Below, piece after piece: positions 10,601 to 64,000 of a stretch of DNA of 64,000 nucleotides; within the stretch, counting starts at the first letter, position 1; the number at the start of each line of letters is the position of its first letter. The stretch covers positions 15,996,001-16,060,000 of the forward strand of contig CM114271.1 of NCBI GenBank assembly GCA_050084515.1, given 5' to 3'. The notes under the pieces were generated by a model. That model was not told the origin of the DNA. It was given only the letters and a program-made list of their open reading frames with translations, and ran no database searches. This stretch comes from Blasia pusilla. Lineage: Eukaryota. A program made the translations under genes and the position numbers.

Positions 10601-11260
10601 AGGATGAAGAGCTATTGGCTTTGTCAATTCCTCCACAAGCAAAAGTTCTCTCATACAAGTCTATGAAGGCTTATGGCAATCACTATAGGGTAGAGGGAGA
10701 GGGTGGATATAATGCATACTCCACTTACGATAGTGGAATTGGAGCAATATTTTTGGATGAGGGTAATGATGATCGAATTGTGCTTATTCATATGTGGGAG
10801 TTCTGGTCGATGTAATTGCGCTTGATACGGGATTGTTGATCAACCTGTAATATTAATGAGAGGGAGGTGGGTGAGGGCAGATTGGAAATCACGGATGCCA
10901 TCCATGAAGCGAGACCGTGAAGGCTTCCTACTTGTAAACCTTAGATCTTGTGAACCTATCAACCATCAACCCTTTGTGTTCCCATCTCAAGTGGAACAAG
11001 TCTTTTTTGGAGATACGAACAAAAGAAGTGGATGGAAGGTTGTTTTGAGAAAAGAAGCTAGATCCCGTCGAGTAATTTTGGATATCTATGATGGTGGAAA
11101 CCTAGATGAAGGATATTTTGTTGCAATTGACCAGATTGAAATGCCATCAGGAAGAGTGCCACTAGCTAACACTCTAGGTGCTGTAGAGCTCACTGCTGAA
11201 GAGGTGGTGACTGCAAATAGAGATTGTAATAATGTCCCTATCATCCAAGTGTCCACATAA
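7663..11260 (+). pseudogene. CACTA transposase (TnpD-like), with introns, frameshifts and stops
   Basis: CPCTECK...HLRKNG associated domain; IHACPKGCVLF, GLALDGVNPY, YNLPPW, TISDYPAYG (Transposase_21); DVMHVEKN; MKSHDYHV, FPPSFFDVMTHL, WMYRMER; QPFVFPSQVEQVFF. Confidence 0.92.
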
Positions 11261-11473
11261 GTGCTTTATGAAGAAGAGAGCTCCAAAGAGGATGTAGAGA
11301 TTTAATTTTCCTTTTGTTCAAATATTAGAGATACATGCGGTTTGCTTTGAGAAGTGAGTCAAAAGTCATGGTTCTAGTTTAACCTTTGTGTGAGATGTTT
11401 GCATTTGTCAATCATGCATGATAACTCTCCTGATTCAACTCCTTGACGACATTTTTCAACAGAACCTTTCATA

Positions 11474-16724: not shown

Positions 16725-17129
16725 GCTAATATTAGACGTTCATGCCTACATGTAGACAATACTTACTTACAGTAGTGCATGTTTTTTTGACTCGTTCTCT
16801 ATGAAATCTCAAACTCTCCACAGAGTTCACTGTTGATTACTTGTAGTAATCTTTATGACCACTGTCTTTGTTGCTGAATTTACTTTTCTTCAATATAAGA
16901 GTACACAATTTTATTCTAGTTCTTGCATTGGACAGTTAGTAGTTTCCAATCACATTTTTGTTTTTACACTGCATTCTCAGTTGATGAATGGAGTGTCTGA
17001 ACTAAAATCTCCACCTTTCCCTTGATTTGGTTAGTTTATCGATGCCTTGTGAGAATCAATGCATGAATGGATAGGCTACATTCTGCAAAGAGAACCTTAG
17101 CCTTCTATCATGAGACCTACTTCTAATTC

Positions 17130-17887
17130 CCATATCTTGAAGTCATTTAAATATCAGATGAATCATATTAGTCATAAATCATTCAGTCATATAATGTAGC
17201 CAAACTCTAGTCATAAAAGTCAAATATGTAGGTACCTAGTCATATTCATCTATCATGCACTCATATTAATGAATCGTGGAGTCATTCAGACCTGTCATGC
17301 AAAATATCAATCATATAGAAGTTAGATTCTAGTCATAAGAAAAAATGTATTAAAAAAATATGGAGTCATTTAAAACAATCACATATTTAAGTTCCTAGTC
17401 ATATTCACAAAGCATGGAGTCATACAAAGTAGTCAGACTTTAGTCATACACAAAGACCATGTCATTTATTGAGTCGTATATAACCATTTAAAGTCATTTA
17501 TAAGAAACAAAATAATCAATATGACTTAGTCATATTTGAAAGCTTAGTCATAGAATTGAATGTGAAGTCATTTTTATGAAATTCTCCGAACAATATTACT
17601 ACAGTTGACTCATACAATGTGACATGTGTCATGATTTAAGTAGTCGTACTTGATGACTTGCCACGTCATATGCTGATATGGTCGTCATATTATATGACTT
17701 TAGTGACGTGTCAATCATTTAAATGAATGACTAGGTCTCTCATCCTAAAATGACTCGAGTCATGGTATGGTAGATGACTAGGCTTTTATGACTCCATGAG
17801 TCATCAGTCATTTCCAGTCATTTTAAGGCATATATGACTTGAGGAAGTCATATGAGCCAGTCATAAAACTATGGAATTGTTCTAGTG
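17130..17887. repeat. CACTA right subterminal repeats and TIR
   Basis: Dense AGTCAT/ATGACT motifs ending in TTCTAGTG. Confidence 0.85.
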
Positions 17888-18990
17888 ATACCTCAACCTA
17901 TCCCGATGTTGCGCAATCGCCAAGTTCTCAAATGTCATAGGCATCACTCTCCGAAATAACTCAGCCCTCTGAGAACATGCTCGCATCCATTCATCAGGGT
18001 CATCAAGGTTCAACTCCTCACCAAAATCTCGACAAATGGCCGTAGGCAAATCTGGCTCTGGGCCACAAAGCAACAAATACGGTAAGAAAGACGCTAGGGA
18101 TGCCTGCCTGCTAAATATATATCCCATCGCCAACCATGGCAACTGAAGGTCCCAATCTCCTAGGTGACCTCTCTGCAAGCCGTACTTGCGTAATCCTCTC
18201 TTCATTGTCTAGACAAGGCTCTCCGCTAGTCCATCCGCCTCGTGATGATCTCGTGAAGTAGTGCGGTGATCGATCAGGGTCTGATCACCCAAGGCCTGAA
18301 ACTCCCCGTGAAACTCTGTACCCTGGCCTGTGAACACCTCAGCTGGTGCGTTGTAATGACTCAACACTCGATCTAGAAAGGTTTACGCTACTCCCTCACT
18401 CACTTTGTCAAGCAATGCAACCAACTCTATCCACTTAGAGAAGCGTTCGACCATCACCAACACATAACGACGATGGCGCTTTGTCACATGTAAAGGTCCT
18501 GCAAAATCCAAACTCCATCTATAACCTAAACCCATGATCGGAAGTGGATGCAACTGTGGAGTCAAAGGATTGAATGATGCCCTGACTCGATCACATACCA
18601 TGCACTTGGCAACAAACTGCTGAACGTCAGAGTCTGCATGCCCCGCCATCAATACTTTATCTGGAGCAAGTTGTACGTCCGCTTCACTCCACAATGACCC
18701 AACTCCTCATGGGCATGATGCACCAAACGTGCTCTTTGCAAAGGATGAGGCACCACATGCACTCTACCATCCTCCCAAACTCGCAACACATGTGTCCCCT
18801 CCCACCGAAACCGTCTGGCTCATTGTAGGATGAGATCCCGCCCTCTAGCACCCATTGTGCTCACAACACTGCATGTACGCAGGTACTCTAAGACCACTCC
18901 ATCTTCGTGAATGTCTTGGCCACCTATTGCCTCCTCATTGGCCTCTGGATCTAAGGACTCTCCATCAAACCTCACCATCGAAGTCTCAGC
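17888..18990 (-). pseudogene. DDE integrase (copy 1)
   Basis: HAHEELGH, CMVCDR, WSLDFAGP, GLAE..VxTMKR motifs; frameshifted. Confidence 0.9.
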
Positions 18991-18993
18991 AAT

Positions 18994-20100
18994 CTAGCTC
19001 CCCGTAGCCAACAAGCCCAAATAGGCTAACGCGTGCCATCCTGGCACCAACTCCTCATCACTCTCACCATGCCAATGAGCTCTAGTTTCATCTCGCTGAC
19101 TCAAGCATGGGTTACGGCTCAAACCATTTGCATCCTGGTTGAGCATCCCAGGTCTATGCACCACCTTGAAGTCATACTCTTGCAACAAAAGAGCCCACCT
19201 GGCAAGCTTCCCTGTAAGCTTGTCAGACTCCATCAACCACTTAAGTGCTTGATGATCAGTAATGATGGTAAAAAGGTTTCCGAATAGATAACACCTAAAA
19301 TGTGTGACAGCCCACACCGCAGCCAAGTACTCACCCTCATACAAGCTATACATTGCCTCTGTATCGTTGTTCGAGCGACTAGCGTAAGCCATCACGAACT
19401 CTCTACCATCATTGTCATGTTGGGTCAGCACGGCTCCATGCCCCAACATGCTCCAATCGGTATGCAATTGGAAAGGATGCCCCTTGATCGCTCTCCTCAA
19501 TATGGGCGTGGATGTCAATATGTCCTTGAGCATCTCAAATGCTCTCTCTTGCTCATCCTCCCAGTGCCACTCTTGAACCAGATTGGTCAGCAAGGTCAGT
19601 GGCTTCGCAATCAAACTGAAACCCTTGACGTACTGTCGATAGAAGTTCACCAATCCCATGAATGCACGAACTCGACTCACATCTATAGGGCGTGGAACGC
19701 TTGTGATAGCCTCTATCTTTTTTTGCTACAGACCAAGCCACCTGGGTATATCGTATGACCCAAGTACTCAATCTGGTCGTGGAAGAACTTGCACTTGCCT
19801 AGACGTAGCTTCAGCCCATGTAACTGCAATCGTCAAAACTCCTCCTCTAGACGTCGCTCATGCTCCTCAACCGTGGCGCTAAATACTATGATGTCATCAA
19901 TATAACATTCAGCAAAATCCAGACCTGCCAAGATCCAATCCATGACCCTCTGAGAAACTCAACCAGGGCGTTTTTTAACCCAAATGGTAAGAATCGCCAT
20001 TGGTACAAGCAATCCTTCCCATGAGGATCAATGCCCCAAAATACCGTACCCAAATCCTTCATTCTAAATGCAAAAAAACTCCTATAACTCCTTAGGAATT
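18994..20100 (-). pseudogene. Gypsy RT (N-terminal part deleted) and RNase H (copy 1)
   Basis: LPFGLKN, YIDDI, FMGLVNFYR, LHTDWS, AYASRS, TDHQALKWL, LARWALLLQEY. Confidence 0.9.
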
Positions 20101-20437
20101 GATGTATCTAGCGCTGCTCTCCTCTTGTCAACTAAGGGCCCATATTTGGCTCCCAAGTCTCCATCGTGACTACGGTAGGACTCTCCGGCGCGGGTGTCGG
20201 TGGTTGCCATGGTGCAATCCCGTCTCGAACAACAGAACTCTCATCTCCACGTGTAGTACCCAAAACCCCACTCGATGCTATGGCTACCATCTCCTGGCGT
20301 ACCTGCAAAACATCCCAAGAAGTCCAGAGGTGTCTCTCCCGATCACCCTTGGTGTGTCAATCTCCTCTGGTCTTGCCCCCAGCCATTGCCTTAACTGTCT
20401 CCGTAGGCATGGGGCTCACCAACGCAACTATTGTGAT

Positions 20438-21470
20438 CTATCGCATCCTCAAACGATGTTGCTCAACTACTCTTAAGCTGAAAATCCATGTCAAGTAGTT
20501 TATGTCCATCGCTTGACCCAAGACATGACGTCGTGATGCCTCTGATAGTGACGGTATTACCATCACTCCTGTGGGGAATCCCATCAGTTGCTCTTGCTCA
20601 TCGGCGTTGGGCTCCATCAACCTTTGTTCTTGGTCATCCCAAACCAAGCCACGACGGGCCTCCTTGAATGCATAGGCAGCGGGCAAACTCACCAATGTGG
20701 CAAAGGCTGCCCGTGGCATGCCAATCCTGTTGACCACAATCAACGGCGGTCGATTATCGTGCTTCACTGCCTGTGATTGACGGCCCGGATCCAATATAGA
20801 ATCCACCAACAAATCAGAGGGGCGCTCCACATTTGCATATGCCCTCCGCAACACCTCGTGTGGTACCAAGTTGGTCCACCAAAGACGCGGGTGATGTGTT
20901 TGTAAACCCACACTCACTGCATCCAACAAAATTGTTGAGCAGATCCATGCGGGCACCTCATGTACACTCGTCACCACACGGGACCTCGAATCGCCCAAAA
21001 TCAGTACATTTTCCAGAATGTATTTTGGAGGACGAGACTAATGCTCTCGCAAGTGTCGCAAGATCCGCATCATCTCCCAAAACAACCTAGACCGAGTGTC
21101 AGCTAACCCACTACCTCGTCCAACACTCGATAAGCCCTAACACGGCCAACCAACAGTGACCAAATCTGTGGCCCCTACTCGCTCCAAGTCCTACGCCCCT
21201 AGTAATGAAATATCCCACGATAGGGAACTCTGGTATCCTTGGACAAGAGACGCAGATAACAAGTCGGGAAAATGGAGGCGTAACTGCGCCATATGGTGAA
21301 GTGAAGCGCATCTTGCAACATCATCAATCTCCACATACAAGTACTGCTGCATGCGTACTCCTGCCTGCAAAACAGCAGCTAACCCAGTGCTGATCTCTCC
21401 AAAGAGATCCAACACCCGAATATCCTCCTCTTGGATGCACCACACAATCGGGGTGGTGTCCAAAGGTATC
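20438..21470 (-). pseudogene. DNMT3-like C5 cytosine methyltransferase domain (copy 1), disrupted
   Basis: VLDLFGEI (motif I), GWPC*G (IV, TAG stop), ILENV (VI), THHPRLWWTN (VIII), EQLMGFP (IX), RHVLGQAM (X). Confidence 0.88.
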
Positions 21471-21757
21471 ATAGTAGCATTCCTCGCTACTTGGGGTTCC
21501 TCTGACCTATCAAACTCTGGTACAAACGTCTTGCTCCACGCAATCTGCACATGCTCAGTGGCTAAGCGTCGAAGCTCCTCAATCGAGCCCCAAAGCGGCA
21601 CCTCTCCTCCACGGACTGATGCGGCTATCATGATACTTCTCTCCATAAAAATACCAGGAACAGGAGTATCCTCTGCATGGACATGTCCCTCAATTGAATC
21701 ACTAGGCCAAGTGATGGCACTGCTAAATGCTGCTAAGGTCACCATCTCTCCTGGCCG

Positions 21758-24221
21758 TCACTCAATCACTGCACCTGTCAATCGAACGGGTAATGAGCTA
21801 AGGCGCCCATCACCTGACTGCCATCCTGTTATGTAGGACGCTGACTCCTTCCAGTAATCCAAGGAAAACCCCATCGAGTATAACATTGCTCCATCAACCA
21901 AGACGTCGTGGGACTCTGCATCAGTCAGTATCGCCTTGGCTCGCACCATGGACTCATCTGTAGGGTGTCCCGGGCAAATCCTCACCACGAACCTCCTATC
22001 GGGTGATATACTATGTGGTACTCGCTCCACCTAAGGATTTTTGTATCCGGAATGGACAACGCTCCACATTGGCTCTCGTCAAGCCCAATCCTTTGAATGA
22101 CACTTTCACCAACATGAGGGGTTGCGCTCTTGAATCCAACAAGACGCGCTGCGGACTAAAAGCTCTACCTCCGAGACTCACCAACTGGAAGACCTCTCCC
22201 CGATCATCCAGCAACACAACACCATGAGAAGCCATGGCACGTTTTATTGTGGATCTAGTGGGCATCTCTGCCATCCTAGCAATTGCAGCTTGCCATGAAT
22301 CCGACGTGGACGGCGCGAGCATCCGCTCCAAGGGCACGTCCATCACCTCCTCTGCAATCAGCTCTGAACGTGATGCACGAACTCCAACTCCACGCTCACA
22401 TAGCGTAGCGGCCAGCCGGAACACCTTGGCAGGCGTACCTCCCAATGTCATAACATCGGAAGCAAAAAATACCGGAGCACGGTACACCATCGTGGCGGCC
22501 CCCAACATCATACTCGACACATGCTCCTTCTGAGCATCAACACACTCGTTTCTCCCATTTCCCTCCGTGCCTGCACACCAATAACATCACCAACTCTCTA
22601 GGAACTCTGATCAGGACCCATGGATGTGTCCTCATCGCCTCGGACAATGTGAAAGACTGAGGAAGCCTCATCTATTTCCTGGCTTCCTCTTGCTGTGGAT
22701 CCAACTCTACGGCTCCTCCACACGTCACAACTGCGGTGGCCTCCATCTGGGCAACCACGTACAACCAACCAGGATCCTCCATATCTCTGGATGCTCCATA
22801 TGATGTCGATGCCATAGATCCAGCATCGTGTAACCTCAATGCCATAGCGGAAATCTGCTCTTGTAGCTGCTGTATCTAAGCAACCATCCGAGCCTCAAGC
22901 TCAGCGTCTCCCTCGACGCGTCTAGGTGGTGGGACCCTACCTCCTCCACAGGAAACTCCACCATCCTGTCGGGCAACTCTTGCTCCTTGTCCTCCAATGG
23001 GACCATCTGGTGCACAACCTTCAGGCCCCACCCGGACCGGCTACTTGCTCTGGTGCCCTCTCTGGACCTCGGTCCAGACGTAACTTAGGGTGTAAATTGA
23101 AATACATGGCGTGTGTGTGACCATACCTCTGACAATAGTCACAATGATAACCTCTTGGTGTAGCACCATCTCCTCCTCCATGTTGAGGCACACGTCCATG
23201 GCCCTGACGAGTGCAATCGCACTGATGATGGGCTCCACCACATGACCAACAAGTAATCGTATGCAGTTGCTACTGAAGCGTATATGAAGGCGCCGGTCTC
23301 TGTGGCATGGCCTCCCAGTATCCTCCCTGCGCTTGCGATGCCAGAGTCAACCTATCTTGGAGTCCACGTTGTTGCATTGGTGGTGAAGGCAATCGTGACT
23401 ACTCTCGCCCACACCCATGGTGGCTACGCTCTCCTCCCCCATATTACACTCAATGTTCTTGGTAGTCCTAAAAACGTCTCTCAACGTAGGTGAGGTATTC
23501 ATAAGAAGTACCCCCTCCTACACCCGTGTCCGCAGGGTCCGGTCCAACATCGCGTACCATGATTGGATAGCCTAAGCCTCTATTATCCCCTGAGTGACGT
23601 TGATCAACCACCGTAAGCGAGTGTAAGCCTCACGCAAACTCTCGCGCGGGCACCTTTGGAAGTCGTGGATGCTCCGCAACTTCTCCGTCCGTACCCCCTG
23701 GTAGCTCGCCCTCAACTCAGCAAAGAACTCAACCACATGGTTGAACCTTGGACGAAGCCGACTAGACGGTGCAACGCTCCAGTGCGAGTTACCCCTCCTA
23801 AAACATCACTGGTGGAAGAGGAAGTAGCTTCTCTTGACTCCTCCTCCTCATCTGGGAACAGCTCCTTCCATGACACATAGTGTGGGTTATAGTAGAGTCG
23901 CCATGCCTCAATCTCTTGGGCATATCTGTGGGAGAACTCATGGTTATCGTCGATGGATGCCCCCTCTAAATTCTGGAACATACGGTTCCATGTTGTAAAC
24001 GGGTTGAACTCTATAGAGTACATAGCCCGTTATGAGCCGCACCAACTCCTAAACTCCATGATGAAGTCGTGCAACTCAATCATGCCTATTGTACTTGAGA
24101 ACCTACGCAGTCCTCTACCTTGGTCCTCCATTTTGTACGCCCAAGCAGTAGGACTACTCAATGTGAGTGGCAAAGCACTACTCAACTCCTCTACACACTC
24201 CTCCTTGTGTGAAGATGACAT
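21758..24221 (-). pseudogene. gag and aspartic protease (copy 1)
   Basis: RRFSSTIGMIELHDFI gag N-terminus homologous to 61940-62731; zinc-knuckle remnants near 23130-23270; VLLDSRAQP protease motif. Confidence 0.8.
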
Positions 24222-25285
24222 AGAAGGAGGTCAAGGTGGTCCTGCACGTGGAGACCCTCAAAACCTCGCGCCACTCCGCCTAAACCCTCTAGAGCTACTC
24301 TTTGGTCCACCACCTTGCCTATCAAAGTCCCAAAAGGACACTGTGATGATCCTTGTGCCCCCTCACACGATCATTCTCCACCTTGCGAGTAATCACGCAA
24401 TCACTCAATCTAACATGCAGCACTCAAGCTACACTCTCTGACCAAGACGCGTGCTGTGTGGCACAAGCGGCGTGGTGCGGAAAGTCAACTGATCTACAGT
24501 CTCATCGATAAACCATCCTCAACTCTGGATATCCCACACATGTCTATGTCCCCTCAATCCATACGTCATCAATGCTCTTAGCATCACCACAAAACCCAAT
24601 GTCCCAAATAACTTCCCAATATCCAAAATTCTCTCACACGTGTAGGGTAAGAGACCATAATGGATAACCTAACAATAATTTCGATGTCGCTCATCAAAAA
24701 TTGCAAATCTCGACCCCAACTTGGTCGTGAAGACAACTACTCCAATCAGCAAGTCGTACTCCTCTCGTATAGACGGTGCTCAAACTTTGCAAGATTGACC
24801 TTAACTTTTTGCTTGCAACTATAAATTGTGCACTGTTTATTGTACAACGTGCACAGCTTCACGATCTACAAAGGCATCAAAAACTATTTCAAATAAAAAA
24901 TTCCAGTAAAAATTGATGTGGATTTTTGTAAAGCCCAACGTCTCTTTCTCCTACACAAAATTTGGCAGCGCTTCCGTGCTTATTTCTCCCAACAAAAATG
25001 TAAAACCTATGAAAACACAAATCAACATGCTACATGGTGCTCCTCAAAGCACTGGCATGGGGAAATTTTCTCCCATACTCAATCCGTATTAAAAATTGGG
25101 GAGCGCTTATGCGGGCCACTCTTCCACATGAAAAATCGGCAAAGGAAATATAAAAAATGAGGAGCTCCGACTCTGGTGAGCACTCCCATGAACTCCTAAA
25201 TAGGGAATACAATCCCCAACCTACAAAACCAGCAAGTGACTAGCGAGCTCCCCCATGAAGCTCTCTCACTCATCTCATTTCTCTC

Positions 25286-25805
25286 TTTGTAAATCAAGGG
25301 GAAATCTCTCTCAACACCATAGCTCTCAAATGTGTGCACTCTCACATGTCTCTCTCAATGTCAAACCAAACCCACTCTCCTAATGAGAGGCTTAGGTCAC
25401 ACACAAAAGGCAAGCAAGACCATAACTCTGCCGCCTCATGCCAAGAGGTTCATCAAAGAGAGAATGACATCTCAAGCTCTCTCTCCTTGAGGTATACTCC
25501 TCCCTTCTCCCAAGCTCTCTCCATGATAACCTATGCTCCCAAGTCACCTCCTTAACTCTTGACCTAATGTAGGAGGTCAAGAGCCACTTATCATAAATAG
25601 AAATTCAACCATATGCTCAAAATGGTACTACCCTAAAATAGTAAGTTCCTCAATCTGGCTCTAAATGAGCCAAAACGAAGGGGAAACCTGCTCTCTCAAG
25701 TTTCCCGGGGCCTCAGAAGGTCATCCTCGACCTCCTGAGATTGTCGCCCACTACTCGCAAAGGCACCCTACTAGATCTCTCTGATCTATCCTATAAGACG
25801 TGACA
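25286..25805 (-). repeat. 5' terminal repeat A1 of copy 1 (no B segment attached)
   Basis: Matches 1-438 and the reverse complement of 27779-28296; similarity stops where B2 begins in copy 2. Confidence 0.88.
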
Positions 25806-28418
25806 AGGATGCAGATGGTTTCAGCCGTAATCCATGCTTGAGTCAGCGAGATGGACTGAAGCTCGTTGGCATGGTGAGAGTGATGAGGAGTTGGTGCCAA
25901 GATGGCATGCGTCAGCCTATTTGGGCTTGTTGGCTATGGAGAGCCACATTGCGGAGACTTTGATGGCGAAGTCTAATGGAGAGTCCTTAGATCCAGAGGC
26001 CGGTGAGAATACGACAGGTGGTCGAGATATTCACGTCGATGGAGTGGTCTTGGAGTACCCCTTTGCACTGGCAGCGTTGCAAGCACAATGGGTGCTAGAG
26101 AGCGGGATCCGATCCTACATCAAGCCAGATGGTTCCGATGGGAGGGGACACATGTGTTGCGAGTGTGGAAGGATGGTAGAGTGCGTGTAGTGCCTCATCC
26201 TTCATAGAGAGCACGTTTGGTGCGTCATGTCCACGAGGAATTTGGTCATTTTGGATTGAAGCGGACATACAGCTTGCTCCAGATACAGTGTTGGTGGTGA
26301 GGCATAGAGACTGACGTTCAGCAGTTTGTTACCAGGTGTATGGTCTATGACCAAGTCTGAGCATCGTTAAATCCTCTGACCCCATATTTGCATCCACTTC
26401 CTATCATGGGTTTAAGTTATAGATGGAGTTTGGATTTTGGAGGACCTTTGCCTTTGATGGAGGGTCATAGTCGTTCTGTGTTGGTGATGGTCGAGCATTC
26501 TTGAAATGGATAGAGTTGGTTGCATTTCATGACAAAGCGAGTGAGGGAGTAGCGTATGCCTTCCTAAATCGAGTGCTGAGTCCTTATGCCACACCACCTG
26601 AGGTGTTGATACACCAAGGTACAGAGTTTTGCGGGGAGTTTCAGGCCTTGTGTGATTAGGCGCTGATCGATCACCGCACCACTTTGCAAGATCATCTTAA
26701 GGTGGATGGACTAGCAAAGAGGGTTATGCAAATGATGAAGAGAGATTTACACAAGTATGACTTGCAAAGAGGTCACTTAGGAGATTGGAACCTCCAGTTA
26801 TCGTGGTTGGCGATATGATACAAATTTAGCAGGCAAGAATTCTTATCTCATCCGTACTTGTTGCTTTATGGCCGAGAGCCAGATTTACGTGCGGCCATTC
26901 GTCCAGATATTGGTGAGGTGTTGAACCTTGATGACCCTGATGTATGGATGCGAGCATGTTCTTAGAGGGCTGAGTTGTTTCGGAGAGTGGTGCCCATGGC
27001 ATTTGAGAACTTGGAGATTGCGCAGCATTGGGATACGTTGAGGTATGCGACTATTTGGAGAGGTGGTTATCGACCTACTATCCAGAGATTTCATCATGGA
27101 GACTATGTCTAATTGCAGCAGACGGCACCTACGATGTTAGATGTAACTGCAAGGCGCACCCTCTTGAGAGTGCGTGACATTTTTCCATCTGATGTTCTCT
27201 TATTGGAGGGACGGGATGATATGGTATGGTTTGGAAGGACCATGTGCGTAACTGTGCGCCATGTCATCTTTCAAACATTGACAGTACAATTGATCCGAGC
27301 TTAGTAGTAGTTCCTGTAAGCTTACGGTGTATGTTGTGTGGTTTCGCCCGTATTGCAGCCACTATGCTAGTCTGTGATGGGTGTTCGAGAGGATGGCATA
27401 TGGCATGTTTGACGCCACCTCTCACTAGGATTCTTGAGGGATGATGGATTTGTCCCAGATGTACATAGAGTGGATAGTTCTAGATTTTGACTTGTGTGTG
27501 TGACATGGATGACAAGAAGGCGACTAACGATGGGGCCACATGAGCACCCGACCTTTTTGCTCTTAGTGTTTGAGAGATGTATGTCATGATAGGTAGGGAT
27601 AGTTGGCTATCTAGCGTTAGACGGACCTAACCACCAGCTAAGGGGGCGATTGGAGATATTTTAGTACTTCTTGCCTTGTTTTTTGGATGCCATGAGTTAG
27701 CATGGGATCGTGCGTGTTTGTGTGTATGTTTGTTGACAGCGATGTATGTTGTATAGCGATGTGTATGCGCACGACAGTTGTCACGACTTTTAGGATAGAT
27801 CGGCGAGATCTAGTAACACGCCTTCGGGGATGCTGGAGGACAATCTCATGAGGTGGAGGATGACGAGTTGAGGCTATGGGTAATCTGCGAGAACAGGTTT
27901 CCCCTTCATTTCGGTTCATTTGGAGCCATATAGAGAAACTTACTATTTTGGGTAAATTTTCATTTGGAGCATATTTTACTTTCCACTTTGGGAAGTATTC
28001 CTTGACCCGCTACAGCATATCAAGAGCCAAGGAGATGACTTGCAAACAAAGGTTACCGAGGAGAGAGTTTGGGAGAGGGAAGGGGGTATACCTCAAGGAG
28101 AGAGAGCTTGAGAGCTCATTCTTTCTTTATTGAACCTCTTGGCACGAGGCGGCAGAGTTATGGTCCCTTGCCTTGTAAGTGTAACCTGAGCCTCTCATTA
28201 GAAGAGTGGATTTGGTTTGACATTGAGAGAGACATGTGAGAGTGCACACATTTGAGAGCTATAGTGTTGAGAGAGATTGAATCTTGATTTATTAAAGATA
28301 TTTTAGTACTATTTGGCTCTTGGTTTGGATGCCATGAGTTAGCATGGGATCATGCATGTTTATGTGTTTTTTTGTTGACAAAGATGTAAGTTGTATAGCA
28401 ATGTGTATGCGCATGACA
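25806..28418 (+). mobile_element. Retroelement copy 2, 3' half (RNase H end, integrase, PHD, PPT-B1-A2-B2); host site of copy 1
   Basis: Starts mid-RNase H (DADGFSRNPCLSQRD); integrase motifs; CMLC..CDGC..WHMAC PHD at about 27330-27465; ends GCGCATGACA at 28418. Confidence 0.9.
27650..28418 (+). repeat. Split terminal repeat block B1 (27650-27776), A2 (27779-28296), B2 (28297-28418)
   Basis: B1 and B2 are direct repeats of about 125 bp flanking A; PPT AAGGGGGCGA at 27640-27649. Confidence 0.9.
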
Positions 28419-54843: not shown

Positions 54844-55607
54844 TGTCGTGCGCATACATATCGCTACACAACATACATCGCTCGTCACATCTACACCACA
54901 CAACACCGATCTTCCCCAAACACGGGTCGATCCACACATGTACAAAAATCAACTCATACATATACATGGAGATCATACAAAAAAAATAAAGAGTAGTAAA
55001 AACGGCACACCCGGCCTAAAACTCCACTCCTCAATCTACATCGGCATATCGAGCCTTGTCCACCCTGTGCTATCAAGGAATCCGGACGCTAGCACCCTAG
55101 TCCTAGCTCACACACATACAAGGGAGGTGCTCCAGCGGCCCAACATGAGAAACACCCTGTGCTTAGGAAAGCCATCTTCCTCTCTAATATAGGGTTGGGA
55201 AGAGCCAAAAGGCTCTTCCCCTAAAAATAGCGCTCCCCTTGGTAACCTGCGCGCACAGGTTACCAGGGGCGGATGACCTGGTCAACAAGTCATCCGGTTG
55301 TAAAAGACCTCAACATGAAAGTTTTTAGAAACGACGTTCCTGACACAATGGACCTATCCTCAACCTCATCCGACACCGTGGGACAAAGTTACACTCAAGA
55401 TAGTCCGCTGGCTCCTACGCCCTATCCACGATAGATCTCGGCCTATCGGCCTACTCGGATGTGATAATTTATCGATGCGCATACATATCGTTACACAACA
55501 TACATCGCTCGTCACATCTACACCATACAACACTGATCTTCCCCACACACGGGTCGATCCACACATGTACAAAAATCAACTCATACATATACATGGAGAT
55601 CACACAA
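54844..55607 (-). repeat. Split terminal block B1 (55607-55470), inferred A2 (55466-54981), B2 (54980-54844)
   Basis: About 137-bp near-identical direct repeats; PPT AGGGGGGCGG immediately upstream of B1. Confidence 0.88.
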
Positions 55608-55684
55608 CCGCCCCCCTAGCTGGCAGTTGGATCCCCCCAACTCCAGATAGAAAATATCACATCTCTCTGACATGACCTACTACC

Positions 55685-57200
55685 CTATACACATCTCGGA
55701 CACATCCATCGTCCCGTGGGAACCACATCAAGAGGGGGGGTCAGACATGACATATGCCACCCTCGAGAACAACCATCACATACCAACATGGTGGCTGCAC
55801 CCCTCGCAGATCCGCACAATATACACATCAAGCCTGCAGGTACCACTGCCAAGCTCGGATCCACCATCCCATCTACGTTCGGATGTTGACATGGCGCACA
55901 ATTGCGCACATGATCCTTCCAAACCATACCATCCCGTCCCTCCAACATGAGGACTCCGGTTGGTAATACCTCGCGCACACGTAGGATCGTGCGCCCTGCA
56001 GTGACATCTAGCGTCGTGGGTGCCGCCTGCTGTAAATACACGTAATCTCCAGGATGAAACCTCCTAATCCCTGGACGATAACCTCCTCATAAAATGGTCG
56101 ATACCTCAATGTATCTCTATCTTTGGGCAATAGCTAAGTTCTCAAAGGCCATAGGCATAACTCTACGAAAAACTTCTGCCCTCTGAGAACATGCTTGTAC
56201 CCACACATCTGGATCATCAAGATCTAACACCTCCACCATGTCACGTCGAATCGCTGCAGGTAAATCTGGCTCTCTCCCAAAGAGCAAAAAGTACGGTGAA
56301 AATGACGCCAAGGATGCCTGCCGACTAAAGCGATAACCCATAGCCAACCATGGCAACTGTAGGTCCCACTCCCTCAACTATCCCCGCTGCAAGCCATACT
56401 TGCGCAATCCTCTCTTCACCGTCTGTACCACTCTCTCCGCCAACCCATTTGCCTCAGGATGATCTCTGGACGTGGTGCGGTAATCTATCAGCGCCTGATC
56501 ACACAAGGCCTGAAACTCTCCCTTGAACTCGGTACCCTGGTCAGTCAACACCTCCGCCGGTGCACCAAAGTGACTAAGCACACGATCTAGAAACGCATAA
56601 GCTGTTCCCTTGCTCGCCTTGTCTGGTAGTGCCACCAACTCTATCCACTTGGAGAAATGCTCCACCATGACCAACACGTACCTATGATGACGCCCTGTCA
56701 ATGGCAAAGGTCCCGCAAAGTCTAAACTCCACCGATAACCTAAACCATTAAGTGGAAAAGGATGTAAATGCGGAGTGGGAGCATTGAAGGATGCTCGCAC
56801 TCTGTCACATACCATACATCTGGCCACAAACTGCTGTACCCCAGTATGCATGCCGCGCCACCAATACTGAACCTAGAGTAAGTTGTAAGTATGCTTTACT
56901 CCGAAATGTCCCAACTCCTCATGGGCATGTCGCACTACACGTGCTTGCTGGGAAGGATGAGGTACCACTCGTATCCTACCATCTCCCCATACCCGAAAAA
57001 TGTGAGTCCCCTCCCACCTGAACCTCTTGGCTCTCTGTAGGATCCAATCCCGCTCCCTAGCACTCACTGCACTCGCAATGACGCCAGTGCGCAAGAACTC
57101 CACAACCTCCACGTTGTCATGGATATCACAACCACGTGTCGCCTCCTCACTAACCTCCGGATCCAAAGATTCATCATCCAACCCCACCACTGGAGTCATC
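55685..57200 (-). pseudogene. DDE integrase with C-terminal PHD finger (copy 3)
   Basis: HAHEELGHFG/CMVC zinc domain; WSLDFAGP, LTDQGTEF, NGLAERVV catalytic D-D-E; CILC-CDGC-WHMSC-WMCPRC. Confidence 0.93.
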
Positions 57201-58640
57201 ACTTGTGGCTCCGTGCCATCGAGCTCCTGTGTCGTCTCTCTGACTCAGACATGGGTTACGACTCAACCCATCCGCATCTTGGTTCAGCCGACCTGGCCTA
57301 TGAACCACCTCAAACTCATACTCTTGTAGTAATAGAGCCCACATGGCAAGCTTGCCCGTAAGCTTGTCGGACTCGATCAACCACCTCAACGGCTGATGAT
57401 CAGTGATAAGTTTGAAAGGGTTGCCGTATAAGTAGCACCTAAAATGTGCTACGGCCCACACTGCAGCCAAGCACTCTCCCTCGTAGGAGCTGTACTTTGC
57501 CTTTGCAATGTTGTTCGATCAGCTCGCGTAAGCCACAACGAACTCCCTCTCCTCGTCATCCCTCTGAGTAAGCACTGCTCCTAGACCCAACATGCTCCAA
57601 TGCGTATGTAACTGGAATGGGCGACCCCTAACCGGTCTTTATAAAATGGGTGAGGACGTCAACCTGTCCTTGAGCTCCTGAAATGCTCGCTCCTGATCAT
57701 CTCCCCACAACAAACCTGATCAAGTCTCGTCAACAAGGTCAAAGACTTTGCGATCGCACTAAAACCCTTGACATACCGTCGATAGAAGTTCGCCAGTCCA
57801 AGAAATACCCGGACTCGACTCACATCTGTAGGGCGTGGAATCTGCGCAATAGCCTCTACCTTCGTCTGCTGAACGCCTAACCCACTCGGGTATATGGTGT
57901 GTCCCAAGTACTCAATCTGCTCCTGAAAGAATCTGCACTTGCCTGGATGTAACTTCAATCCATGTAACTGCAATCGCCGAAACACCTCCTCCAAGTGTCG
58001 CTCATGCTCCTCAATCGTGGAACTGAAGATAAGAATTCATCTATGTAACATCGTACAAAATCCAAGCCAGCCAGAATCCTATCCATCACTCTGTGAAACT
58101 CTGCAGGCGCGTTCTTCAACCCAAATGGTAAGAACCGCCACTGATACAAGCAATCTCTCCCGAACCAATCTATCCCCCAAAATGCTGTCTTCTCCCTGTC
58201 CTCCAACCTGATAGGAAGGCGATGATAGCCGAGACGGAGATCTAAATCTTGAAGATCTTTGCATGCCCTCTTGCATCAAAGATCTCCTCGAGTAGGCATG
58301 GCGCACCCGATCGACCTCGTCTGTCGGTTGATAGGACGGTAATCTCCACACATCCGCCTATCCGTCCAATTGCCATACATATCCTTCTTCGCCGGCATGA
58401 CTGTGGCAGATGCATACTCCCCATGTGATAACTCCACAAGTCCTGCCTCCAACAAGTCCTGACTCATGCTCTGAATCAAGGCTCGCTCCATATCACAATA
58501 CGTGTAGGGTTGACGAAAGATCGGCGTATCACTAGCCAACTCAATCCATATCCCGAGACCCTTCAGCGTACCCAAGTCTCTCTCTCATCAAGGCAAAACA
58601 ACCGACATGCCCTCTCAAAAACCTATGAACTCGCCGTCGC
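57200..58640 (-). pseudogene. Gypsy RT and RNase H (copy 3), frameshifted
   Basis: RMCGDYRPIN, KTAFW, LPFGLKNAPAEF, CYID, LKLHPGKC, FLGLANFYRRY, ITDHQPLRWL. Confidence 0.92.
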
Positions 58641-58867
58641 TCTCCTCCTATCAACTTGAGACCTATCGCAGGCTCCCAAGTCTCCATTGTGACCTCACTC
58701 GGAGAGGACGCAACTTCCGGCTTTGGTTGCTATGTAGCAACCCTAGCCACCTCATATGACCACTCCACTCGACCTCCTACACCATGCTCCACATCCAAAA
58801 AATGAACATGTGCTACTCTAGCCTTCGCACTCTCTGCTCGAACGACGCCCCAGAAGTCCATGGGTGC

Positions 58868-59992
58868 CTATCTCTCCTTGTCTCGCCCCGACCAATGCCT
58901 TTTACAGACCACAGAGGCAATGGTCCAACTTCGTGGGCGTGGCGGCATGGATGACACTCGCATCCGTCTCTGCTCAGCTATACCTAGGCTGACTATCCAT
59001 GTGAGACAGTTGAGGTCCATCGCCTGCCCCAACACCTGTCTCTGGGATGCCTCAGTCATCCCTGGCACCGCCGTAGTACCGGTAGTGAACCCCATGGCAC
59101 GCTTGCGCTCATCTGCTGTAGGTTCTTCCAATGCTCCGGTCAACTCATCCCAAATCATGCCTGGACCTCCTTGACGAAAGGCATGGGATGTTGGGAAGCT
59201 CACCAACGTAGGTAAGGCTGCCCTCAACTCCCCCATCCTTTTGGCCATGGCCAACGTTGGTCTATCATCCCGTGTCACCACCTGAGATTGACGCCCTGAG
59301 CCCAAAATAGCATCCACTGTGAGATGTGGTGCTCTCTGGACTCCACCGTATGCTCGACTCAGTACCTCTGATGGTATCAGGTTCGTCCACCATAGTCGTG
59401 GATGATGGGCACGTGACCCGACTCTCGCTACATCTAACAACACAACAGGTCCCAACCAAGACCTCACCTGATGTACACTCGTCATCACACGTGCACGAGT
59501 GTCTCCCAACAACGGCACGTTCTCCAAAATGTACGCTGGGGAACATATATGACTCTCCTGCAAGTGTCGTAATACTCGCAACATCTCCCAAAACATCCCT
59601 GACCTCGGATCCTGCAATCCAAATCCTCGGCGAGTTGATGAATGACCCTGACATGGCCATCCAGCAATCACCAAATGAATGGTGCCAACTCTATCCAGAT
59701 CCTGCGCCCCTACCAAAGAGATGTCGGCGGGTAGCGTATGTTGGTATCCCCGTACTGCAGATACCGACAACAACTCAGGATACCTTTGGACCAATCTCGC
59801 CACGTGACGTAATGATACTCGCTGCCCGGTCTTATCTCTCTCCACATAAAGGTACTCATGCACCCATATGCCCGCCTGCAATAGTGCAGCCAATCCGGTG
59901 CTAATCCCTCCGAAGAGATCTAACACCCTAACACCCTCCTCTGGGCACTGCCACACAACATGTGTGGTATCTAGTGGGATCATCGTCTTCAC
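58868..59992 (-). CDS. DNMT3-like C5 cytosine methyltransferase domain of the polyprotein (open across the domain)
   Basis: VLDLFGGI (I), VERD (II), ADI (III), GWPCQG (IV), YILENV (VI), AHHPRLWWTN (VIII), ERKRAMGF (IX), RQVLGQAM (X). Confidence 0.92.
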   Translation of the reverse strand: MKTMIPLDTTHVVWQCPEEGVRVLDLFGGISTGLAALLQAGIWVHEYLYVERDKTGQRVSLRHVARLVQRYPELLSVSAVRGYQHTLPADISLVGAQDLDRVGTIHLVIAGWPCQGHSSTRRGFGLQDPRSGMFWEMLRVLRHLQESHICSPAYILENVPLLGDTRARVMTSVHQVRSWLGPVVLLDVARVGSRAHHPRLWWTNLIPSEVLSRAYGGVQRAPHLTVDAILGSGRQSQVVTRDDRPTLAMAKRMGELRAALPTLVSFPTSHAFRQGGPGMIWDELTGALEEPTADERKRAMGFTTGTTAVPGMTEASQRQVLGQAMDLNCLTWIVSLGIAEQRRMRVSSMPPRPRSWTIASVVCKRHWSGRDKER

Positions 59993-60025
59993 TCCAAGAG
60001 CCCGATCGCCATGTGACTCTCGCGG

Positions 60026-62731
60026 CTATGGGATAAAAACATGACTCCACGCCTGCCTCACAAGGTCGTCGGCACTCCTCTGTAGCTCTTGAGTCGTACC
60101 CCATAATGGTGAAGAGGCCTCGCCAACATGGGAAGAGACACCCGCCAGGGACTGTCTCTCCGTGGGACTATCCGCTACTGGGACATCCTCCGCATGTGCG
60201 TTCCCCTCCAACAACTCTATTGGCCAGCTAACACTACTTGTGAAAGCTGCCAACGTGGTCACAGACTCGCCTCGTGATCGACCACCTCGTCCCGCAAACT
60301 GCACGGGTAACTAACTCATCCGGCCGTCACCTGACCGCCATCCTGGCCGATAAGCAACGGTCTCCTCCCAGAAGTCAAGGATGAATCCTAGGAGATATAA
60401 GAGTGTACTCCCCACCAACACATCATACGAATCAGCTGGTGTCTTAATCGCACGTGTGCGCATCATAGCACTATCCGTCGCATGCTCTGGCTGGACTCTG
60501 ACAACAATCTCATGTCGAGTCATATACTGAGTGGGTGATACGCCCCCAATCGAGGTCTGTATCTAGAAGGGACAAGGCTCAATGTCGGCCTTCCGTAACC
60601 CCAACGCTAAACACGCCGCCTTCCCTAACATCAAGGGTTGCGCTCCCGAATCAAGCAGGACGCGTTGTGGGTGGTATACTATCCCCGTCACACTAACCAA
60701 GCAAAATACTCCAGCTTGGTTATCCAGTAACACTACTCCAAGTGTCACCACTGCTCGCTCTATGGCCGGTCGAGCTGGCATATCTACCAACTTTGCCGCC
60801 GCCGCATGCCATGACTCTGTGGGGAACGTCCCAAGCACCGGCTCTGAGGGCAAGTCCACCACCTCCTCAACTACCTCTGAACAAGAAGCAGTCATCTCTC
60901 CACGCTCACACAACGTGGCGGCCAATCGGAACATCTCAACTGGTCCAACTCCCAACGTCGCTAACTCTATGGCGGAAAATAGCGGAGTCTGACTCACTCT
61001 AGTGACCACCTCCAACACTATGGTCGACACTGACTCCACTCGAGCTGGCATAGGAGTTGTCACTCCAACTCCTCGTGACGTCGATGTAGGTGCCTGAACT
61101 GTAGGCACCGCTGGTCGTTGAGGCACCATCCATGGTGTGTGTAGTGCCTCTGACAATGTGAACGACTGTGGAACCCTGGTCTGCCGCCCATCGGTCCCCT
61201 CTGGTGGGTCAATCTCAACTCCACCTCTTGATGGCTCGGTGCCTCTCACAGTACCTTGAGTCACCACTACAGTTGCCTCAACCTGGGCTGCACTACACAT
61301 AAATCCCATACTGGCGAGATCCTCACCCGGGTCAGGGTAAGAGGTAAAAGCTGGAGTCACACTAGTTGCTCGCAGCTCCGTGCCTTCCCTAAGCTGCATC
61401 ATTGTCATGGCAGAAATCCTCTGCTCCAACTGATCGATGCGTGAGAGAAGTGCCGACTCTAGTGCTCCTGCTCCATCTCCTCTGGCTGGTGGTGGTCCTC
61501 TACCACCACGTCCAGGAAGAACTCCCCGAACTCCTCCAGGACGACCGCCCCCAGGCCCTCGGCCTACCTGTGGACGTGCCCCTCGGCGAAGGTCAAAACA
61601 TCTATCCCTAGTGTGACCATATCTGTGGCAATGGTCACACTGGTGCTGTGGTGGGACCATCCTCTGTGGCTCCTGAGCAATCGGAGGCGCTGGTGGTCCT
61701 CTCCCATGTTGTGGGCAGTCTCTCTGCCTATGGGCCCCTCCACACGTCCAACAAGACCACATTGGTCCCTACTGGGCAACATATGTAGGTGCGGGTCGTT
61801 GCCTCATAGGCTCACGGAACCCGCCCTGCTCTCTAGGCACACTGGTCCGCTCCCGTGGTACTGGTGCTCGCTGTGGCACCTGTGGGGTCACTGTTGCTCG
61901 TGGACCCGTCGACTCTTGAGAAAATCCAGCGGTCACTACCTACTCCTTACTCATGTTGAGCTCAATACGCTCAGACAACTCAAAGACCACCTTCAATGTG
62001 GGCTTCGCTGTATGAATCAGCACCGCATCTCGAACTCTCCTCCGTAGTTCTCGGTCCAGAACCCCATACCAATACTGGACTGAGTGCGCCTCAGTCACTC
62101 CAAACGTAGCAATGATCAGCCTCCTCATGCATGTGAATGCCTCTCTCAGACTCTCACCCAGTCGTCGCTGAAAATCCTGTAGACTCTTCAACTTGTCAGT
62201 GCGTACACCCTGGTAGCTCTTCCCCAACTGTCGGAAGAACTCCACTGAGGGGCTGAATCTGGGTGGCCCTCTACCACCAGAGGTCTCTGCCACATCGCCT
62301 ATCTCAGTGCCCTCCTCTCCATCTAGTCTCCGGGCTGATGGTGTGGGTCTCTCTCCTCTCACAATCCCATCATATGCCTCGCGACCACTAGTGGACACAT
62401 ACCCTAGAGCCCAATACATCCTCCAGGCATCAATCTCTACTGAATATAGTGATCGAAACTCCATGTAGTCATCCATCGGAGGACCCTCAAATCTTTGGAA
62501 CAACCCCTTCCATGCCATGAAAGGGTTGAACCGTGTCGGGGTCCGTATCTCCTGGAAGTCGCACCATGTGTCGAACTCCTGGATAAAATCATCTAAGTCA
62601 ATGGTGCCCACTGCACCCGAGAAACGACGCATGCGCCGATGGCCCATGTCGTCCATCTCCTGCCAAGTACTACTGTCTCTGTCTGTGATCTCGTCACCAG
62701 ACCCAATGTCCAGTGATGACGATCCAGCCAC
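60026..62731 (-). pseudogene. gag (two CCHC knuckles, RGG-rich tract) and aspartic protease (copy 3)
   Basis: CWTCGGAHRQRDC, CDHCHRYGHTRDRC, VLLDSGAQP; one reading frame broken only by TAG stops. Confidence 0.9.
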
Positions 62732-64000
62732 GGATGGATGTCGAGGGAGCTTCTCACTGGTAACCCCTCAGTATCTCACTCCACTTCGTGTCACACCACT
62801 ACTACTGCTCGCACTACCCCGTTCTTCCGAACCCTGGACGAACGCCGTGATGACAAACCCTGTCTCACCCGCTCAAGCACTCAGACTCACCGAGAGTCTC
62901 CCACATGCCTCACTAGCTCACATATGCTAACATCAATCCCGTGATGATATACCCGGCCTCACGCACACTCAACATTCGGGCTCACCATGAGCCTCCCAAC
63001 TGACTCACCTAACCTAGCGACACTCTCTCGGGTCATACACTCGACCCCTACTCGGCAATCGCCGTATATCCACCAACATGCTATACATGAAAAGAATCTA
63101 AACTCGTCACCATCACTACCCCCACCTAGCATCGGCTACTACCCGATACCCAACACTCTCAATCACACCCGACAAGTGCGGGAAAAGGGACTCGAATGGG
63201 TAACCTGATCACGCCCTCCAACCTGCTGCACTGTCAACATGCACTCCTCCACATGAGATGACAATCTCCGCAACACAACACTCTCCTCAACCTACACGTT
63301 GATCCTCCCGTCAACAGATGCGGACAACCCGTCGGCATCATGCACACTGCCCCTCCATCGTCAACTCTCACAACGCCCTGTCGCGCCCCAAAACATCATG
63401 TCACGCCTGCTGTCCAACTATGTTAGTCATTCACCACGTCGACATCCTCCCTACCATCACGTTCCCCATGCGCCACCGCGTTTGCCGGACCGACCTCGTC
63501 CGTCCTACCACGTTCGCTACAACTGCACACGGACCGAAGGGCGCTCTATAGAGTCAGAACTCAGAGCCTTTATGGCTCTGAGTTTCTGGAACTCCAGAGA
63601 CCTCGGACCCCCCTGCCGTGCCTACCCACCCGCCATTCCCCCTACCCACCCGCTATTCCCCCTACCTATCCGCTACCCTGAGTCGGTCGGAGAGTTTTCT
63701 CCGGCATTCTTATAAATATCTGCCCTCTGGGTCGGATGTGGGAGCGATAATGCTGATGGATCGATATTTACCTCGCCACATCCATGTCCATGCTCCATGT
63801 TACTGCATGGGAGGCATGGGAATTTCCATGCCTATCATCCCCACATACCTGCATTCGATGTGTCACGAACGGGAGCCAATGCCTTGTTTGCCCGGTTAGT
63901 TAGGCATATAAGCACTTTGGGGCTCTAACAGGTCTGCGGATCCACCAATAAGGGTTTAGTACGATGAGGAAGTCGATCCACCACATCAAATATCTAACCA

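Follow-up and report, generated by a model that had tools for sequence, protein, structure and literature searches.

The analyzed DNA is a 64,000-nucleotide stretch of the Blasia pusilla genome (assembly GCA_050084515.1, contig CM114271.1, positions 15,996,001 to 16,060,000 of the forward strand), referred to below as the window. It carries parts of three copies of a retrotransposon family, and in two of them the coding region includes a DNA methyltransferase (DNMT) domain. Both the identity of the element as a retrotransposon and the DNMT3-like nature of the domain can be stated with high confidence. In copy 2, a stop-to-stop frame on the minus strand (58868–60025, 385 codons, P0001) bears the C5 cytosine methyltransferase domain. 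The features of copy 2 are as follows, in the order of its transcription; the motifs were read from the translation.

54849–64000, minus strand: copy 2 of the element, outlined by tblastn with Marchantia and metagenome polyproteins and by a self-BLAST map
61940–62767, minus strand: gag, N-terminal part of open reading frame 1 (ORF1), assigned by homology to Marchantia gag-protease-DNMT proteins and having no Pfam match
61598–61753, minus strand: two CCHC zinc knuckles, CWTCGGAHRQRDC and CDHCHRYGHTRDRC, read from the translation, with coordinates computed by hand
60311–60760, minus strand: aspartic protease region, approximate limits, with VLLDSGAQ (D-S-G at 60644–60652)
58958–59950, minus strand: DNMT3-like C5 cytosine methyltransferase domain, residues 15–345 of P0001
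59894–59920, minus strand: motif I, DLFGGISTG
59639–59665, minus strand: motif IV, AGWPCQGHS, with the catalytic Cys
59513–59530, minus strand: motif VI, ILENVP
59378–59416, minus strand: motif VIII, SRAHHPRLWWTNL
59087–59125, minus strand: motif IX, ERKRAMGF
59015–59044, minus strand: motif X, QRQVLGQAMD
58868–58870, minus strand: private premature TAG, 29 codons past the DNMT domain and 46 codons upstream of the conserved TAG
58724–58732, minus strand: conserved ORF1 stop TAG (58730–58732) followed by CAACCA (CAR-YYA), the boundary of ORF1 and ORF2
57174–58678, minus strand: reverse transcriptase and RNase H region with four frame changes (Pfam RVT_1 and RT_RNaseH; frames of the tblastn segments)
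57659–58036, minus strand: RVT_1 (Pfam)
57174–57518, minus strand: RT_RNaseH (Pfam)
56117–57244, minus strand: integrase region, H2C2 zinc finger and rve core (Pfam, tblastn)
56378–57244, minus strand: Integrase_H2C2 and rve (Pfam)
55691–55825, minus strand: PHD finger at the integrase C-terminus (Pfam PF00628, E 2e-11)
55685–56086, minus strand: PHD (Pfam, span as tabulated with the other downstream domains)

According to the Pfam analysis, the frame matches PF00145 (DNA_methylase) with E 3.3e-8 and 33.8 bits, above the curated gathering score of 22; the first-pass annotation of this DNA, made from the letters only, had named such a profile search among the checks of its proposal. Judged from sequence, the C5 methyltransferase match is far above chance. 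The intact relative L052 gives 51.1 bits with the same profile (E 1.8e-13). The roles of FxGxG in motif I, PC in motif IV, ENV in motif VI and RxR in motif VIII are known from the literature on HhaI. Motifs I, IV and VI are present in copy 2, the first Arg of motif VIII is replaced by His, and one change each is found in motifs IX and X. The three changes affect near-invariant positions, that is, columns with at least 90% conservation among 38 relatives: His stands for Arg 197 (VIII), Lys for Glu 297 (IX) and Gln for Arg 317 (X). Among the 34 sequences that share the domain layout of the window element, 30 keep the catalytic Cys, all 34 the Glu of ENV and 33 the second of the two Arg residues in motif VIII; the glycines of motif I are mostly retained. 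Motifs VIII–X had been likened to those of DNMT3; the resemblance itself was borne out, and the strings quoted for it (AHRARYFWGN, ERVFGFP, RQRLLG) proved to be the letters of human DNMT3A in the alignment and not those of the window.

A phmmer search with the single sequence against solved structures gave the best value for the DNMT3A catalytic domain (3.9e-7), followed by DRM2 (2e-3) and HhaI/HaeIII (0.04–0.09). In addition, a family profile built from the 38 members was searched against all sequences of the PDB, and matches at E ≤ 1 were taken. The order was DNMT3A (E 2.1e-29), DNMT3C (3.3e-27), DNMT3B (4.5e-27), tobacco DRM (6.9e-19), DRM2 (7.9e-16), HhaI (4.5e-11) and DNMT2 (4e-9); no DNMT1 or CMT (chromomethylase) chains occurred among the best 60 of the 61 matches. 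The profile aligns with DNMT3A in three collinear stretches, in the order I, IV–VIII, IX–X, and hence the domain is not rearranged as in DRM enzymes, which differ from it by a circular rearrangement and score at least 10 orders of magnitude worse than DNMT3. The AlphaFold2 model of the domain has a predicted local distance difference test score (pLDDT) of 91.2 and a predicted TM score (pTM) of 0.89. The best Foldseek match of this model in the PDB is DNMT3A 6f57_D (E 5.4e-19, TM score 0.85 normalized to the target, root mean square deviation 3.1, 20% identity), and all matches listed are DNMT3A, 3B or 3C entries. A look-up in the ESM Atlas returned only "DNA_methylase" clusters.

As for the reader domains of host enzymes, no other Pfam match (PWWP, ADD or the plant domain of unknown function) was found on the open reading frame, and the flanks of the domain are the protease and the reverse transcriptase. 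The predicted protein thus appears to be a homologue of the DNMT3 catalytic domain and not a full DNMT3. With the host enzymes (animal DNMT3A/B/C and plant DNMT3) it shares the catalytic fold and the motif order I–X; it differs from them in lacking PWWP and ADD, in its identity of only about 20% to DNMT3A, and in that the element has a PHD reader on its integrase instead.

The element can be classed by its domains as Ty3/Gypsy-type, with the order gag, protease (PR), DNMT, reverse transcriptase (RT), RNase H (RH), integrase (IN) and PHD finger, because RVT_1, RT_RNaseH, Integrase_H2C2, rve and PHD follow in this order downstream of DNMT. The upstream part lies in the frame 62767–58868 of 1300 codons, which has in-frame stops at codons 276, 333, 735, 819, 914 and 1300. 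The C5 methyltransferase motifs, including the catalytic PC and ENV, are therefore in one frame with gag and protease and are separated from them by in-frame stops only, as had been noted at first sight. The Marchantia gag-PR-DNMT protein Mp_4g09160 (1278 aa) aligns to 62629–58781 in a single tblastn segment. The protease of copy 2 has no Pfam match in the window; at the matching place of L052, a weak match to Asp_protease_2 was obtained (E 2e-4, below the cut-off). The proposal of a retrotransposon polyprotein with a DNMT between protease and RT holds for the order of the domains and fails for their continuity: no uninterrupted polyprotein surrounds the DNMT, which forms the C-terminal part of ORF1 in front of a conserved stop.

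No chromodomain is present at the C-terminus of the integrase, where a PHD finger takes its place. The element thus resembles chromoviruses in having a histone-reading module fused to the end of the integrase and differs from them in the kind of module. The nearest solved relatives of the PHD finger in the PDB are PHF12, the second PHD finger of CHD4, the first PHD finger of KDM5B, DPF3, PHF21A, ATXR5 and UHRF1. Several of these are readers of the unmodified histone H3 tail.

Proteins similar to the window DNMT are numerous. In Marchantia polymorpha many hypothetical proteins show 56–72% identity to it, and the values are 58–67% in Calypogeia fissa, 45–66% in Sphagnum and 63% in Riccia sorocarpa; many further relatives come from metagenome proteins. 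A search of 1.84 billion representatives yielded 2580 proteins at E ≤ 1e-3 and 214 at E ≤ 1e-30, many of them 1000–3400 aa long. No Klebsormidium proteins were found among the matches of the protein searches, of the representative search or of a 10-protein cluster look-up, in which only Scenedesmus was named.

In addition, 80 related loci were fetched from metagenome contigs, and the domain order in 78 of them is compatible with gag-PR-DNMT-RT-RH-IN-PHD. The two departing loci have the PHD and IN matches swapped in one case and an IN match before gag in the other. Within the window, the DNMT domain of copy 1 (20441–21448, minus strand) occupies the same position as that of copy 2; it keeps a single frame, interrupted by three in-frame stops of which one comes immediately after the catalytic Cys, and a Glu replaces one of the glycines of motif I. 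Since the DNMT domains of copies 1 and 2 are only 56% identical in amino acid sequence, the two copies belong to different subfamilies. The suggestion that the domain is a trait of the family, drawn at first from copy 1, is thereby extended to the 78 loci and to annotated proteins of Marchantia, Calypogeia and Sphagnum.

For the trees of the DNMT domain, 176 of the 326 proteins besides P0001 had a domain-spanning BLASTP match; 169 non-identical sequences and the two window copies made up 171 rows. The layout (gag-PR)-DNMT-RT-RH-IN occurs in 34 rows including both window copies, the layout RT-RH-DNMT-IN-PHD in 85 rows including the Scenedesmus sp. PABB004 "pol" protein KAF8056149.1, and DNMT alone in 52 rows. 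The two layouts are split by one branch with a support of 98 (FastTree, 171 rows). In an IQ-TREE "quick" tree of 55 rows picked by hand, the second layout, with 25 rows, lies wholly on one side, with a Shimodaira–Hasegawa-like approximate likelihood ratio test (SH-aLRT) value of 94. The window copies form a clade with Marchantia, Calypogeia and Sphagnum that comprises 10 of the 55 rows (SH-aLRT 99) and 19 of the 171 rows (support 99). The charophyte Closterium sp. NIES-54 contributes two proteins with the layout of the window element. The RT-RH-DNMT-IN-PHD group has a homologous DNMT (30–41% identity), the same families of RT, RNase H and integrase, and a C-terminal PHD finger; it differs in that its DNMT lies between RNase H and integrase and not between protease and RT.

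Some side observations concern these relatives. In 39 of the 85 sequences of the RT-RH-DNMT-IN-PHD group, motif IV has Glu and not Pro in front of the catalytic Cys (an unusual "EC" for "PC"); the Cys itself is invariant in the group. Three Copia-type polyproteins of Closterium sp. NIES-53/54 (P0318, P0352 and P0354, with RVT_2 and gag_pre-integrs) have a C-terminal match to the DNMT profile (E 6e-44 to 2e-71), so the same kind of domain seems to be present in Copia elements too. DNMT domains in Copia elements are mentioned in passing in the accessible text of a 2025 paper. The protein P0024, named DNA cytosine methyltransferase at NCBI and assigned to a metagenome-assembled genome of Candidatus Obscuribacterales, nests in the tree among eukaryotic gag-PR-DNMT sequences, and for this reason its bin probably holds eukaryotic contamination.

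The end of ORF1 deserves separate consideration. The frame had been taken to end at 58868, which is the private premature stop of copy 2; the ORF1 stop of the family is the TAG at 58730–58732. Of 49 loci that have the starts of both DNMT and RT, 34 have the two in one frame, and in 32 of these a stop is found at the same codon of the linker (75 of 124, or 109–110 of 172 in a second clade). The 32 stops comprise 23 TAG and 9 TAA codons; CAR-YY comes next in every one of these loci, and the full CAR-YYA in 4; the full hexamer is also found after the TAG of copy 2 (CAACCA). In the intact L052, ORF1 (1369 aa) and ORF2 (1047 aa, with RVT_1, RNase H, integrase and PHD) abut in one frame, and L056 has the same arrangement. 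Five of the 11 Marchantia gene models, as well as the Calypogeia protein P0268, end 71–75 residues past the DNMT domain.

Because the stop is conserved both in place and in its CAR-YY context, RT-RH-IN-PHD is probably made by read-through of the ORF1 stop. Read-through between gag and pol is known in gammaretroviruses. In tobamoviruses the type I signal for read-through consists of UAG with CARYYA directly after it, according to the accessible text of PMC5382211. The window family is similar to tobamoviruses in that an in-frame UAG stands between an abundant upstream product and the polymerase and that the hexamer fits CAR-YY(A/C). It differs from both virus groups in that the stop follows the protease and the DNMT, where theirs follows gag or the replicase core, and in that read-through is a prediction here.

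Selection was assessed on 53 DNMT segments, namely those of the 51 loci with a full-length match and of the two window copies (1378 pairs). Between copies 1 and 2, the proportions of nonsynonymous and synonymous differences (pN and pS) are 0.26 and 0.69 (331 codons). The ratio of nonsynonymous to synonymous substitution rates (dN/dS), which had been proposed as a check across copies, has a median of 0.18 in pairs with dS > 1.5 (n = 160), where dS is saturated, and bin medians of 0.53 to 0.90 in pairs with dS 0.05–0.4 (n = 760). These values indicate long-term purifying selection, in which the active lineage would be constrained and dead copies would drift. Most copies of the family are dead.

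In copy 2, ORF1 has six premature stops, all of them TAG, and the RT/RNase H region has four frame changes. Since six stops in 1345 codons leave such gaps, 385 open codons are not unusual; we concluded that chance alone has left this frame open and that the two window copies are relics without function. Four of the six premature stops in ORF1 of copy 1 are TAG as well, and at two or three of the premature TAG sites of copy 2 the relatives have Gln. TAG stops of this kind would be consistent with decay by C-to-T changes in CAG, which is a CHG site.

Reads of three RNA runs deposited under the species label of the host were mapped at 95% likeness. Their depth is 1–12 over the part of copy 2 from RT to the 3' repeats. 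Nearly all first mates lie on the plus strand, which means sense transcription only if the libraries follow the usual convention (first mate opposite to the RNA). Most reads (199 of 211, 262 of 286 and 247 of 266 in the three runs) are only 95–99% alike to the window, and they therefore come from related copies; at two of the four frame-change places of copy 2, the reads differ from it by one letter in length. In two of the three runs, 10–15 reads match only the 35-base core of motif IV. When translated by hand, their flanks stay in frame without a stop and show the conserved residues of the family, and on this ground DNMT-bearing relatives are probably transcribed in the host organism.

The other copies and the terminal repeats are the following (tblastn and self-BLAST; self-BLAST for copy 1, 3' part, and for the repeats).

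17887–25806, minus strand: copy 1, 5' part, with the terminal long repeat (25290–25806) and then gag to integrase
1–1170, minus strand: copy 1, 3' part, with the PHD region and 3' repeats, running past the window start
25803–28418, plus strand: copy 3, 5'-truncated, with RNase H, integrase, PHD and 3' repeats
55476–55607, minus strand: copy 2, first 3' short repeat
54981–55475, minus strand: copy 2, 3' long repeat
54849–54980, minus strand: copy 2, second 3' short repeat, 96% alike to the first
27654–27776, plus strand: copy 3, short repeat
27778–28291, plus strand: copy 3, long repeat
28296–28418, plus strand: copy 3, short repeat
54849–54890 and 55476–55517 (copy 2), 27734–27776 and 28383–28418 (copy 3): short-repeat ends that were compared

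The two parts of copy 1 join at one place of copy 2: position 17887 aligns with 56100 and position 1170 with 56104. No part of the DNMT is left in copy 3. The 5' terminal repeat of copy 2 was not seen in the window and probably lies past its end.

Two identical long terminal repeats (LTRs) were not found in the family. In copy 1, only the long repeat is present at the 5' end; the 3' ends have the order short-long-short, and this repeat layout recurs, in different flanks, in L069 and L044, two complete loci from metagenomes. The ends are thus split direct repeats of the A1 ... B1-A2-B2 layout and not plain LTRs. This layout is that of the split direct repeats of PAT and Ngaro elements in the accessible text of PMC4157794, from which the window element differs in having a DDE integrase and no tyrosine recombinase. 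No convincing target-site duplications were seen at the ends of L069 and L044. The last approximately 40 nucleotides of the short repeat are 85–93% alike between two otherwise unalignable subfamilies, and this end may serve as a terminal sequence for recognition or priming.

Taken together, it is highly probable that copy 2 is a decayed copy of a Ty3/Gypsy-type family with a DNMT3-like methyltransferase, of the same kind as KnitGypsy-Dnmt3 of the alga Klebsormidium nitens. In active members, ORF1 (Gag-PR-DNMT) would be the main translation product, and a few ribosomes would pass the UAG in its CAR-YY context and make Gag-PR-DNMT-RT-RH-IN-PHD. The DNMT would then be produced in the amounts of Gag and assembled into the particle. 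After reverse transcription it might methylate the element's own new cDNA, probably in the CG context by analogy with the dinoflagellate DIRS-Dnmt3, and the new copy would arrive methylated; this function of self-methylation, reached by inference, is put forward tentatively. The PHD finger of the integrase, which we take to be of the type that reads unmethylated H3K4, could steer integration by reading histone H3 tails. The scenario as a whole, that is, a streptophyte Gypsy lineage, common in peat mosses and liverworts and with transcription in its host, which makes its DNMT at the level of structural proteins before a leaky UAG, packages it, methylates newborn cDNA and picks chromatin with the integrase PHD, is speculative and, with all its parts, rather unlikely to be right in full. 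If it were true, the element would carry a split version of the host DNMT3 logic, with reader and writer on separate proteins, and would be born either pre-silenced or disguised; a move of the DNMT between the PR/RT and RNase H/IN slots would be a rare documented relocation of a domain inside a retroelement.

Several points weigh against this interpretation. The presumed kinship with KnitGypsy-Dnmt3 rests on the shared kind of element, on a repeat layout taken from a figure legend and on the Closterium member. The DNMT3-like assignment is based on scores and on the predicted fold compared with solved structures, and the trees comprise retrotransposon domains only. The low dN/dS of distant pairs is rough, because dS is saturated and 447 of the 1378 pairs were not computable, and stop-free DNMT segments number only 6 among the 51 fetched loci with a full-length match. 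RNA depth is 0–1.6 over the DNMT, gag and protease regions of copy 2. As for read-through, TAA takes the place of TAG in nine of the 32 loci, the hexamer mostly has C and not A at its end, copy 1 has TGG at the conserved stop site, and five of the 11 Marchantia gene models continue into RT; reinitiation, or a sense codon in some lineages, may take the place of read-through. Finally, the domain of KnitGypsy-Dnmt3 gave no methylation in yeast, a result that its authors call inconclusive in the accessible text of PMC5890265.

The domain might serve something other than methylation of cDNA: non-catalytic binding of DNA or chromatin, methylation of the genomic RNA, or action in trans on host chromatin near the insertion site, where heterochromatin would be built and the element's own copy number limited. 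Besides the yeast result, this is favored by the Glu before the catalytic Cys in the sister layout (39 of 85), and RNA methylation and self-restraint are among the possibilities named in the accessible text of PMC5890265. The catalytic set is kept in the layout of the window element at the frequencies given above, however, as catalysis requires; the closest enzymes of solved structure act on DNA, with DNMT3A/B/C outscoring DNMT2, a tRNA enzyme, by about 20 orders of magnitude; and SymbioDIRS-Dnmt3, a DNMT3-type enzyme of a retrotransposon, methylates CG in yeast (PMC5890265, accessible text). Such other functions are considered rather unlikely.

Two further explanations concern the window itself. 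The 385 uninterrupted codons, compared with five other premature stops in the rest of ORF1, might suggest a methyltransferase domesticated by the host as its own gene. The frame has no start context of its own, however, and is bounded by the TAG at 60026–60028 and the private TAG at 58868–58870 within a decayed element; its length is not unusual for the density of stops; His, Lys and Gln stand at the three positions where at least 90% of the 38 relatives have Arg, Glu and Arg; and RNA depth over the frame is 0–1.6 in the three runs. Host domestication, being very improbable on the grounds of context, altered residues and RNA depth, was rejected. A one-off capture or an assembly chimera, with a host DNMT3 lying beside a retrotransposon or misjoined to it, is contradicted by the same layout in two diverged window copies (56% identity), by the compatible order in 78 of the 80 loci and in many annotated proteins of four bryophyte genera, and by the presence of the stretch in DNA contigs of several sequencing runs. 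The layouts of the relatives leave this explanation next to no probability, and it was likewise rejected. The interpretation as a decayed member of a DNMT-bearing Gypsy-type family is therefore preferred.

Retrotransposons with a DNMT are known from dinoflagellates and a charophyte, as the first-pass annotation stated and the accessible text of PMC5890265 confirms. KnitGypsy-Dnmt3 of K. nitens is described there (de Mendoza 2018) as a Gypsy element with a non-rearranged Dnmt3 domain, conserved catalytic residues and Ka/Ks < 0.2, and according to the legend of Fig. 4c it has DIRS-like repeats with Gypsy domains. The window family is similar to it as a streptophyte Gypsy-type element with a non-rearranged DNMT3-type domain in the coding region, low dN/dS and odd repeats. 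The differences are in the host, which is an alga there and a land plant with liverwort and Sphagnum relatives here, and in the place of the DNMT, which is "in the Pol polyprotein ORF" in KnitGypsy-Dnmt3 (PMC5890265, accessible text) and ends ORF1 together with gag and protease in the window family; this comparison is one of texts only. SymbioDIRS-Dnmt3 of Symbiodinium, for which de novo CG methylation was demonstrated, is also a retrotransposon-borne DNMT3-type domain and the only such one with this activity shown; it belongs to a tyrosine-recombinase (DIRS) element of a dinoflagellate and was acquired independently according to the authors (PMC5890265, accessible text).

The presence of such elements in a plant genome had been considered possibly new. 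In a narrow sense this stands, and it does not hold for the sequences themselves, as public databases already contain proteins of the family from Marchantia, Calypogeia, Sphagnum and Riccia. A 2026 preprint (10.64898/2026.05.21.726589) has the words "streptophytes (Gypsy-DNMT3)" and a 2025 paper (PMC12344493) refers to DNMT3 in retrotransposons of "streptophytes", each in its accessible text. A full-text search of the literature, confined to article text, brought up no paper that describes such elements from liverworts or mosses, and the accessible texts of PMC6453930, PMC5784723, PMC11982613, PMC8616336 and PMC10952607, which deal with bryophyte methylation, contain no mention of them. The features that may be new are a DNMT that ends ORF1 before a conserved stop of the leaky type, two alternative slots for the DNMT, and the wide presence in bryophytes.

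DNA methylation is the chief weapon of plants against transposons, and a transposon equipped with a de novo methyltransferase of its own reverses the usual picture. Such elements were described in 2018 in one alga and in dinoflagellates, and the kind is found here to be common in bryophytes. The position of the DNMT with Gag and protease before the stop bears on the amount made and on its packaging, and the same enzyme occupies two slots across two related groups of elements. Intact ORF1 models are already annotated in Marchantia, so that experiments are possible in a tractable plant.

As for the rest of the window, the ratio of observed to expected CpG is 0.63–0.73 in the copies compared with 0.42–0.71 elsewhere, with no clear signal of special methylation. 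At 25803–25806, the 5' end of copy 1 (minus strand) adjoins the start of the truncated copy 3 (plus strand) within a few bases, which looks as if one member of the family had inserted into the other or as if the two had been rearranged with each other. Copy 1 is split by approximately 16.7 kb of nested transposons (1171–17886), in which two further features were recognized by Pfam:

2611–3204, minus strand: fragment of a Copia-type RT (RVT_2, E 2e-36)
7963–8988, plus strand: CACTA-type transposase (Transposase_21/tnp2, E 6e-36)

The same region contains short tandem or near-tandem direct repeats at 5239–5642 and 15605–15926, with units of about 123–150 nucleotides that are 65–87% alike.

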